Made by a program: the position numbers and the translations under genes. Source: Escherichia coli (GTDB lineage: Bacteria; Pseudomonadota; Gammaproteobacteria; Enterobacterales; Enterobacteriaceae). From it: a stretch of 64,000 nt of DNA. Position 1 is the stretch's first letter; every line of letters begins with the position of its first letter. Under the pieces are notes generated by a model. The model was not told the origin of the DNA. It was given only the letters and a program-made list of their open reading frames with translations, and made no database searches. Positions 59,316 through 60,982 of the stretch are shown here, piece by piece. The stretch is taken from assembly GCF_003018235.1 (NCBI RefSeq), contig NZ_CP027437.1; one strand, written 5' to 3'.

Positions 59316-60982
59316 TATGCAGTGTGAGTTCTATTCTTCCACCCCAATTTTTCTATTACTGTTCGTAAATCTTCCGGAGGATTTAATTTTTCTAACTGTT
59401 CTTTATTAATATATTCATATATATTTATTTTCCCATCCCGGAGGATTTTCATCATTCTTGTTCTAATTTTTAATTCATTCCCCATCTTTTCTTCAAAAAT
59501 CTTAACGACATAACCCGGTTGTTTTTTTACAATTTCATTTGTTTTTTCTTCATTACCATAAACATATCCTAACTCATTAAGATACAGCTGTTCGCCCTCA
59601 TACTTCTTAAGTAATTGATAGAAGTACCACTTCGCAAAATCAGGTTGCTTCATGAAAAAACCCTTCAAAAAAATATCATTTACTAAAATGCTGACAGGCA
59701 CTTCATTAAATAGCAACTTAACATCATCAAATAACCTTAGTATTAAGCGTGATTTTTCTTGATTGCTTAAGTTAAAATCATTGACATATGCAACCAACTT
59801 ATCCCAAATCAATTCATGTAATTCACAGCTATTTTTATAGGGTTCTTTATCGAGATTGAAAAATAAGGTCTCAGCTATTTTAATTTTAGATTGATCGCAG
59901 CTAAAATCTTTAGATTGATCGCGGCTAAAATCAATATAATTTATCACAGAGCATGCATGCTTTATCTTTGCTGAATCACCAATATATTGCATGCTTTTAT
60001 TAAAACACCAATCCAGTATTCTTACATCATTAATATATGGGGATTTTAAAAAAGTCTCCAGAATCGAAACAATGACCGGTGCAAGGTTAACTTTTGCATC
60101 ATCTAAGGAATCAATAAGAATATGAGACAGGTTAACTTTGATGTCATTAATTTCATTGTCAGTAGCCTTTTTATTATTAATAAGATAATTATTTAATACG
60201 TTAAGGTCATCTATTTCTTTCAGTATCCCTTTTTTACCCAGCAAGTATGAAATCGATTCATTACATACATAAGGCATTAATAGCAGATGTTCTTTCCTTA
60301 TTGCTAATAATGCATTATTCAATGATTTTTCTAATAAATCCGTAATCGTAGAATCAACTGAACCTTTACAACTCACCTGCGAGTTATTTAAGTCATGAGA
60401 ATTATTTAACTCCTGCGGAATATTTAATAGACGAGCTATTTCCTTGTTAGCTTCGCGTTGGTAACACGCCAGAATCTTGTTAGTAATCAGGTGTAATGAA
60501 CTCTCATCTTTTCTTTCAAAGGACTTCCCTTCATAACGATTAGTCGAACCATCAGATTGTTGAAATATAATAGCCGTATGTCCTTGACGAGTCCCCATAG
60601 TAGTGATAGTGGAAAGTGTAATTTCTATTTCCACCTTAGATAAATCTGCTCGTTCCCCTTCAGGATTATTCATAACAAACTTCATTATCTCACTGCCATC
60701 ATTATTTTTGATATAAGATGAGGACTCAATATGAGCCATCATATTTCTTCCCGCTTCATTGGAGCGTTTGCTAAAATCCACATAACCCAGGGTAAATATT
60801 TTTACCAAAAACTCCAAAAATGTCTTAGGATCAAGGATATTTCTTGTATTATCCTGCCCCTCGGCATTACGGGCAAAATTATTCATTCCAACACGCCAGG
60901 TATTTATAACTTCACTTTTTTGTTTAAAATTGTCGGCTGATGTAATGTGTTGAGAAAAATTCCAACCTGATATTTTGCTCAT
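59315..60982 (-). CDS. yjgL: Uncharacterised AT-rich protein YjgL
   Basis: 555-aa ORF rich in Asn/Lys/Ile. Position between argI and tabA matches K-12 yjgL. Contains an internal 24-bp tandem duplication at 59884-59932. Confidence 0.6.
   Translation of the reverse strand: MSKISGWNFSQHITSADNFKQKSEVINTWRVGMNNFARNAEGQDNTRNILDPKTFLEFLVKIFTLGYVDFSKRSNEAGRNMMAHIESSSYIKNNDGSEIMKFVMNNPEGERADLSKVEIEITLSTITTMGTRQGHTAIIFQQSDGSTNRYEGKSFERKDESSLHLITNKILACYQREANKEIARLLNIPQELNNSHDLNNSQVSCKGSVDSTITDLLEKSLNNALLAIRKEHLLLMPYVCNESISYLLGKKGILKEIDDLNVLNNYLINNKKATDNEINDIKVNLSHILIDSLDDAKVNLAPVIVSILETFLKSPYINDVRILDWCFNKSMQYIGDSAKIKHACSVINYIDFSRDQSKDFSCDQSKIKIAETLFFNLDKEPYKNSCELHELIWDKLVAYVNDFNLSNQEKSRLILRLFDDVKLLFNEVPVSILVNDIFLKGFFMKQPDFAKWYFYQLLKKYEGEQLYLNELGYVYGNEEKTNEIVKKQPGYVVKIFEEKMGNELKIRTRMMKILRDGKINIYEYINKEQLEKLNPPEDLRTVIEKLGWKNRTHTA

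Follow-up and report, generated by a model that had tools for sequence, protein, structure and literature searches.

A 24-bp in-frame tandem repeat in Escherichia coli yjgL varies from one to four copies and probably behaves as a low-rate minisatellite

The window, a stretch of 64,000 nucleotides of Escherichia coli DNA analysed as a whole, contains an open reading frame that is the orthologue of YjgL/IcaR (Table 1). Its neighbours are argI (58253-59257) and tabA/yjgK (61105-61566), as in K-12. Synteny and similarity to K-12 bear out the name yjgL, which the first-pass annotation of this DNA had already given to the gene. The same annotation called the gene AT-rich and of low GC, and this agrees with a GC content of about 0.30 to 0.37, against 0.45-0.55 for the neighbouring genes. 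Another low-GC stretch (0.33-0.38) is found on the minus strand at 55737-56960, beside valS. It corresponds to a 407-aa ORF that may be yjgN-like, and its hydrophobic sequence suggests a membrane protein.

The gene was found in 4,822 of the 5,426 complete E. coli genomes and is highly polymorphic, with identities within the species ranging from 74 to 100%. The window allele shares 84.6% DNA identity and 74% protein identity with K-12 yjgL, and only 124 of the complete genomes carry an allele at least 99% identical to it. In the literature, yjgL is also known as icaR (gem3). In Shigella, MxiE/IpgC activate icaR via a MxiE box, and the type III apparatus secretes its product, while in E. coli without MxiE/IpgC the gene is silent and often disrupted. 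The authors suggested a “fossil” gene that evolves under neutral selection (PMC9241512, PMC9769918). The earlier description of a gene of unknown function is therefore slightly outdated, as the product is a substrate of the Shigella type III secretion apparatus (PMC9241512). Immediately upstream of the ATG, on the minus strand (60983-61045), about 60 nt are almost invariant in 25 alleles whose coding identity is 74-100%. This short segment would be compatible with the published MxiE-box promoter of icaR (PMC9241512).

Many yjgL alleles are truncated by frameshift, deletion or insertion sequence (IS). This applies to most of the sequenced alleles with three or four copies of the repeat described below, and to many with two copies, which are truncated downstream of the repeat or annotated as frameshifted. 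Overall, yjgL is a horizontally acquired, lineage-restricted, decaying and normally silent gene. In one allele, 99.9% identical to that of the window, the sequence is split by an IS1 (L002, NZ_CP195442.1, 1765-2531). Numerous other alleles carry an annotation as frameshifted pseudogene, consistent with ongoing decay.

As for the protein, the only match in Pfam is the SopA central domain (PF13981), which stays below threshold, with 16 bits against a cut-off of 27 (E=0.016). Searches of NCBIfam and of the PDB sequences with YjgL gave no meaningful match. Furthermore, a scan of 1.84 billion representative proteins returned 72 matches, with one full-length cluster and nearly all others being short fragments; neither SopA nor NleL is among the 72. 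The AlphaFold (AF2) model has a mean pLDDT of 59.6 and was built from a shallow alignment of 15 rows that is gapped at the repeat. With this low-confidence model, a Foldseek search against the PDB retrieved nothing at E≤0.001, and SopA and NleL were again absent. YjgL is thus a lineage-restricted protein without a supported family. Two labels were considered and rejected: a SopA/NleL-like effector, given the PF13981 score below gathering and the lack of a sequence or fold match (with a low-confidence model), and the NCBI name “DNA-binding protein”, for which neither Pfam nor NCBIfam offers HMM support.

Table 1. Position of the gene, the 24-bp repeat and other variable tracts, in window coordinates.
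Feature	Position	Strand	Description
yjgL/icaR CDS	59315..60982	-	555 aa, both ends intact relative to K-12 YjgL; from ORF, synteny and similarity
Repeat unit 1 in protein order (“G” unit)	59909..59932	-	TTTAGATTGATCGCGGCTAAAATC on + strand; DFSRDQSK, residues 351-358
Repeat unit 2 in protein order (“A” unit)	59885..59908	-	TTTAGATTGATCGCAGCTAAAATC on + strand; DFSCDQSK, residues 359-366
6-bp insertion TTTAAT adjoining the repeat	59879..59884	-	coding AAA ATT AAA ATA; KI to KIKI
18-bp tandem array	60384-60427		2.4 copies in the window; L-N-N-x-Q-x hexapeptide linker
8-bp microsatellite near the yjgL 3' end	about 59404-59425		TTCATATA on + strand, TATATGAA on coding strand; 1-2 units in the window
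64-bp frame-shifting deletion	59374-59448		between 11-bp direct repeats CCGGAGGATTT at 59374 and 59438
Coding-strand poly-T tracts (A7 and A6 on + strand)	59667-59673, 59655-59660		differ by one or two bases between alleles

Roughly 1 kb into the coding sequence, we found two head-to-tail 24-bp units, TTTAGATTGATCGCAGCTAAAATC and TTTAGATTGATCGCGGCTAAAATC, which are identical at 23 of 24 positions (TRF: 59885-59932, period 24, 2.0 copies, 95% match). Allowing up to three mismatches, these two places are the only matches to the unit in the whole window, and 100 dinucleotide-preserving shuffles gave an expectation of 0.00 matches. By TRF, repeat search and shuffles, the 24-bp tandem duplication noticed in the first pass is real and non-random. 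Its sequence and its two peptide units were also read correctly, as confirmed by translation of the coding strand. Its span had been given as 59884-59932, where the end is right and the start is one base off. Each unit comprises 8 codons, and the sole A/G difference between them results in an Arg/Cys change on the coding strand.

The 6-bp insertion adjoining the repeat is found in all window-like alleles, including those with one copy, and is absent from K-12, O157, L009 and L011-13. Allele L025 (NZ_CP148282.1, 1546-1593), known from a single genome, has two diverged units, identical at 20 of 24 positions, next to a 6-bp insertion with the variant sequence TTTTAG and an L011-like right flank. 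Either it arose by recombination with a crossover within the array, or it is what remains of an older duplication.

In the AF2 model, a helix at residues 336-349 is followed by a loop at 350-360 and a second helix at 361-377, with pLDDT below 50 at residues 355-362. We tentatively place the two units across the inter-helix loop and the start of the second helix, in the C-terminal helical region. If the model is right in this part, a change of length at loop 350-360 might be tolerated.

Copy number was counted with synthetic junction queries with 40-bp flanks against the 5,426 complete E. coli genomes. The E-value limits can be passed by an uninterrupted match only, and with 40-bp flanks a gap of 24 bp is not profitably bridged. 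Counts based on at least 80% coverage were discarded, because the search joins overlapping pieces. Two copies are present in 2,077 genomes and one copy in 58. Three copies were found as a full junction match in 8 records, two of which agree in length and coordinates and probably represent the same genome. Four copies were found in a single record, where the three-copy junction match breaks off after three units and the sequence itself contains four. Among the genomes carrying this allele group, the frequencies of two, one, three and four copies are 96.9%, 2.7%, 0.37% and 0.05%, with a Nei diversity of 0.061. Roughly 38% of the complete genomes carry the two-copy allele lineage, and approximately 3% of genomes have a non-modal copy number. 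The first pass had proposed a comparison across strains, in which an identical copy number everywhere would have spoken against a variable repeat; the number differs, from 1 to 4.

We then fetched 25 alleles and aligned them at the repeat site, and the unit number of every fetched copy variant was confirmed in its sequence. One diverged unit is present in K-12, O157 and three further divergent classes of allele. In the case of the two-copy window-like alleles among the 25, the same A/G difference is always present. All ORFs with one to four copies stay in frame through the repeat. The 120 nearest variants of the window protein, E. coli sequences with 99-100% identity, keep two copies without exception (120 of 120); three of them are not 555 aa long, with the differences at their ends.

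INDEPENDENCE and heritability were judged from unit patterns, about 800 nt of flanking sequence and exact-sequence protein look-up. On the plus strand, the pattern A-G is the norm. Among the longer arrays, A-G-G occurs on three backgrounds (L014, L017 and L019), A-A-G in L015, A-A-A in L016 and L018, and A-A-A-A in L020. Single units are either A (L008, L022 and L024) or G (L021 and L023). At protein level there are eight alleles: R, C, RC, CC, RRC, RCC, CCC and CCCC.

Over about 800 nt, the flanks of the three-copy L014 have no differences from the two-copy L002 and 1 from the window. The one-copy L021 differs from L005 at 1 position, and the one-copy L023 differs from L006 at 3. L015 (A-A-G) and L019 (A-G-G) have identical flanks and different unit patterns, and the A-G-G of L017 stands on a separate flank background. 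Finally, the one-copy clade of L008 and L022 has at least 25 flank differences. As different unit patterns are found both on near-identical and on different backgrounds, there were at least 8 independent gains or losses of units. Only the L008/L022 clade could be ancestral instead of a contraction, which leaves the number of losses uncertain.

These flanks also bear on the reading that copy differences come mainly from homologous recombination importing foreign yjgL alleles, and not from slippage in situ. The gene is mosaic, with 74-100% identity within the species: L024 joins window-like left flanks to a right flank of L011 type, and the right flank next to the two diverged units of L025 is also L011-like. 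However, several variants are 0-3 nt from a two-copy allele over about 800 nt, with no tract left that could have been imported; A-A-G and A-G-G share identical flanks; and there is no three-copy allele class that could act as donor. We therefore regard import as an unlikely main source.

Heritability was assessed by exact-sequence look-up in a collection of 15 billion proteins. The three-copy A-G-G protein was found on 42 contigs, A-A-G on 12, A-A-A on 8, the three-copy protein of the window background on 5 and the four-copy protein on 1. The one-copy proteins were found on 6 and 121 contigs, and one-copy proteins of 547 aa exist with either the R or the C unit. The two-copy protein with two C units is on 19 contigs, and the two-copy protein of the window itself on at least 1,000. 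Since variant proteins recur on several contigs, the copy variants are real and clonally inherited alleles, and not assembly errors. Homopolymer errors are known in long-read assemblies, and these would be the source of a sequencing or assembly artefact, but nothing in them is specific to this repeat. The 24-bp unit is far below any read length, the two-copy form is present in 2,077 complete genomes, and the variant proteins recur in independent assemblies from several sources, so that an artefact can practically be dismissed.

Altogether, we consider it probable that the repeat is an in-frame, low-rate minisatellite polymorphism. In this view, an old duplication was followed, on rare occasions, by slippage or unequal exchange, and the changes matter little or not at all to selection. 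A single 24-bp tandem duplication would have arisen in one yjgL/icaR allele lineage and then spread. Because two near-identical units now stand head to tail, slippage or unequal exchange becomes possible, and replication slippage or unequal sister-strand exchange would occasionally add or remove a whole unit, giving 1, 3 or 4 units. The altered alleles would then be stably inherited, each change adding or removing the eight residues DFS[R/C]DQSK without ever altering the frame. The founding duplication would thus be single and rare, and the later changes dependent on homology.

The observed changes always involve whole units and are always in frame. A synthetic query for a doublet of the K-12/O157 type had 0 matches in the 5,426 complete genomes, and a query for an L011-type doublet found no match other than L025, a diverged or recombinant allele. 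The single-unit classes were never seen to have duplicated their own unit, which fits homology-dependent slippage between existing copies. The slippage step is proposed from the sequence patterns, in which slippage and unequal recombination would leave the same trace.

In terms of local features, the borders of the duplication show no microhomology, with an array of exactly 2.0 units. Folding at the repeat site is no better than in shuffles (z = -0.06) and inverted repeats were not found there; slippage promoted by a hairpin was rejected on these grounds. A Dam-methylation switch, considered as each unit contains a GATC, was judged implausible about 1 kb within a coding sequence.

As for the effect of the length changes, they are most likely neutral or nearly so. 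This is inferred because the gene is AT-rich, lineage-restricted, silent without MxiE/IpgC and often truncated. The near-fixation at two copies could instead reflect selection. In such a reading, the two copies form an adaptive loop extension maintained by purifying selection, and forms with 1, 3 or 4 copies are slightly deleterious and being purged. This would agree with the rarity of the variants and with the retention of the same R/C pair in 2,077 genomes and across alleles whose flanks are up to about 4% different. On the other hand, the protein is often not intact, as most three- and four-copy alleles and many two-copy alleles are truncated or frameshifted. One-copy alleles reach 121 contigs, and a low slippage rate alone accounts for rare change in a two-unit array. 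Given that the gene is also reported as silent (PMC9241512), we find adaptive retention improbable and keep the neutral, low-rate minisatellite as the preferred reading.

The truly unstable tracts of yjgL lie outside the 24-bp repeat, and are the 18-bp array, the 8-bp microsatellite and the poly-T tracts. The 18-bp array has 12.9 copies in K-12 and 8.9 and 10.9 in two O157 strains, and no copies were detected in alleles L011-13 and L024. The published primers (PMC3321953), applied by in-silico PCR, identify it as the O157 MLVA locus VNTR-34/Vhec2/TR6, in ORF Z5865. The primers map to 60365-60481, with a product of 117 bp in the window and of 261 and 225 bp in the two O157 strains. Within O157, this locus has 4-12 copies and a diversity of 0.66 (PMC3321953). 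The 24-bp repeat (59885-59932) is outside this amplicon and is therefore a separate locus.

The 8-bp microsatellite reaches about 8 units in L013 and L017, and spans with +8, +16 and +24 bp were found in a spread sample of genomes. Its unit length is not a multiple of 3, and its coding-strand sequence includes TGA. In L008, L013 and L017, the expanded alleles examined, the ORF ends inside the array, with the last 27 or so residues lost. Furthermore, the 64-bp deletion is present in L010, L015, L016, L018, L019 and L020, and in roughly one third of the sampled genomes. This is a classic slipped-misalignment deletion. Lastly, the first poly-T tract changes from T7 to T8 in L005, L015, L016, L018, L019, L020 and L024, which gives the common “...FFEGFFHEAT*” protein of 425-463 aa, and L009 has T8 at the second tract (59655-59660). 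Long-read homopolymer error may explain some of the poly-T differences, but the truncated proteins are found repeatedly, on many contigs.

The first-pass annotation had suggested a possible contingency-type variable repeat, that is, a hypermutable repeat kept because frequent copy switching varies a protein exposed to the host. The variable part of this suggestion stands, with 1 to 4 copies and independent changes. The contingency part does not, as the diversity is 0.061 and there is no frame switch. Copy number does vary through recurrent independent events, the Shigella protein is a substrate of type III secretion (PMC9241512), and the same gene has further slippage-prone tracts. However, the diversity of 0.061 is that of the whole species, against 0.66 for VNTR-34 within O157 alone (PMC3321953), and the closest 120 protein variants are all two-copy. 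A unit of 8 codons offers no on/off switch by frameshift or promoter spacing, and the variants are passed on clonally and reach up to 121 contigs. Without MxiE/IpgC, the gene is silent in E. coli, with many alleles truncated by frameshift, deletion or IS. Consequently, we hold a contingency locus to be very unlikely.

A broader idea would be that yjgL/icaR is a multi-tract variable gene, in which lineages with pINV or a related type III system could use the tracts to vary the length or the C-terminus of the secreted protein. It would take in the VNTR-34 linker, the 24-bp loop repeat, the 8-bp microsatellite with a stop in every frame and the two poly-T tracts, a combination to which we likewise give very little credence. 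If true, the 24-bp repeat would rank last in activity among several tuning sites, and not be neutral debris.

Returning to the low-rate minisatellite, the repeat has what defines a VNTR or minisatellite: a head-to-tail unit of at least about 10 bp, copy differences among strains and independent recurrence. Neither hypermutability nor expression switching by copy change, which characterise contingency loci, was found for it. It is a fresh instance of a well-known kind of polymorphism, with no new mechanism shown, and of little importance by itself. The low-rate behaviour of a two-unit in-frame duplication provides a baseline for the far more active VNTR-34 in the same gene, and for the typing of lineages the locus could add a minor marker that evolves slowly. 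The case also serves as a warning that length differences among IcaR orthologues stem from several distinct repeat-mediated events.

Among the closest known systems is VNTR-34. It is an in-frame tandem repeat in the same gene, its copy number depends on the strain, and presumably the slippage mechanism is the same. It differs in its 18-bp unit, in its site about 450 bp away, and in having 4-12 copies and a diversity of 0.66 in O157, against 1-4 copies and 0.06 for the 24-bp repeat.

In terms of mechanism, Lovett and colleagues reportedly described a slipped misalignment in E. coli that takes place between short tandem or direct repeats and does not depend on RecA. The yjgL repeat would resemble this in signature, with whole-unit changes only where two homologous copies pre-exist, and the gene also has a deletion between nearby short direct repeats (64 bp, CCGGAGGATTT). 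The comparison here is with a mechanism and not with a family of loci.

Contingency loci in Moxon's sense, such as the phase-variable simple-sequence repeats in Haemophilus, Neisseria and Campylobacter, have units of 1-7 bp in long arrays, and switch at high frequency via frameshift or promoter spacing. Like these, the yjgL repeat is a tandem repeat in a coding sequence, with copy change presumably driven by slippage and a product that may meet the host. Unlike these, it has a 24-bp unit, in frame, with two copies, rare change and no on/off effect.

Finally, the X-region of spa in Staphylococcus aureus, the basis of spa typing, is composed of 24-bp octapeptide units, often 2 to 15 or more, and is highly diverse. 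These repeats are found in the cell-wall-spanning region of an expressed surface protein. Both loci have a 24-bp in-frame octapeptide unit, gains and losses of whole units together with point differences, and patterns that can be typed. The spa array is long, diverse and expressed, whereas that of yjgL is nearly fixed at two units in a silent gene.
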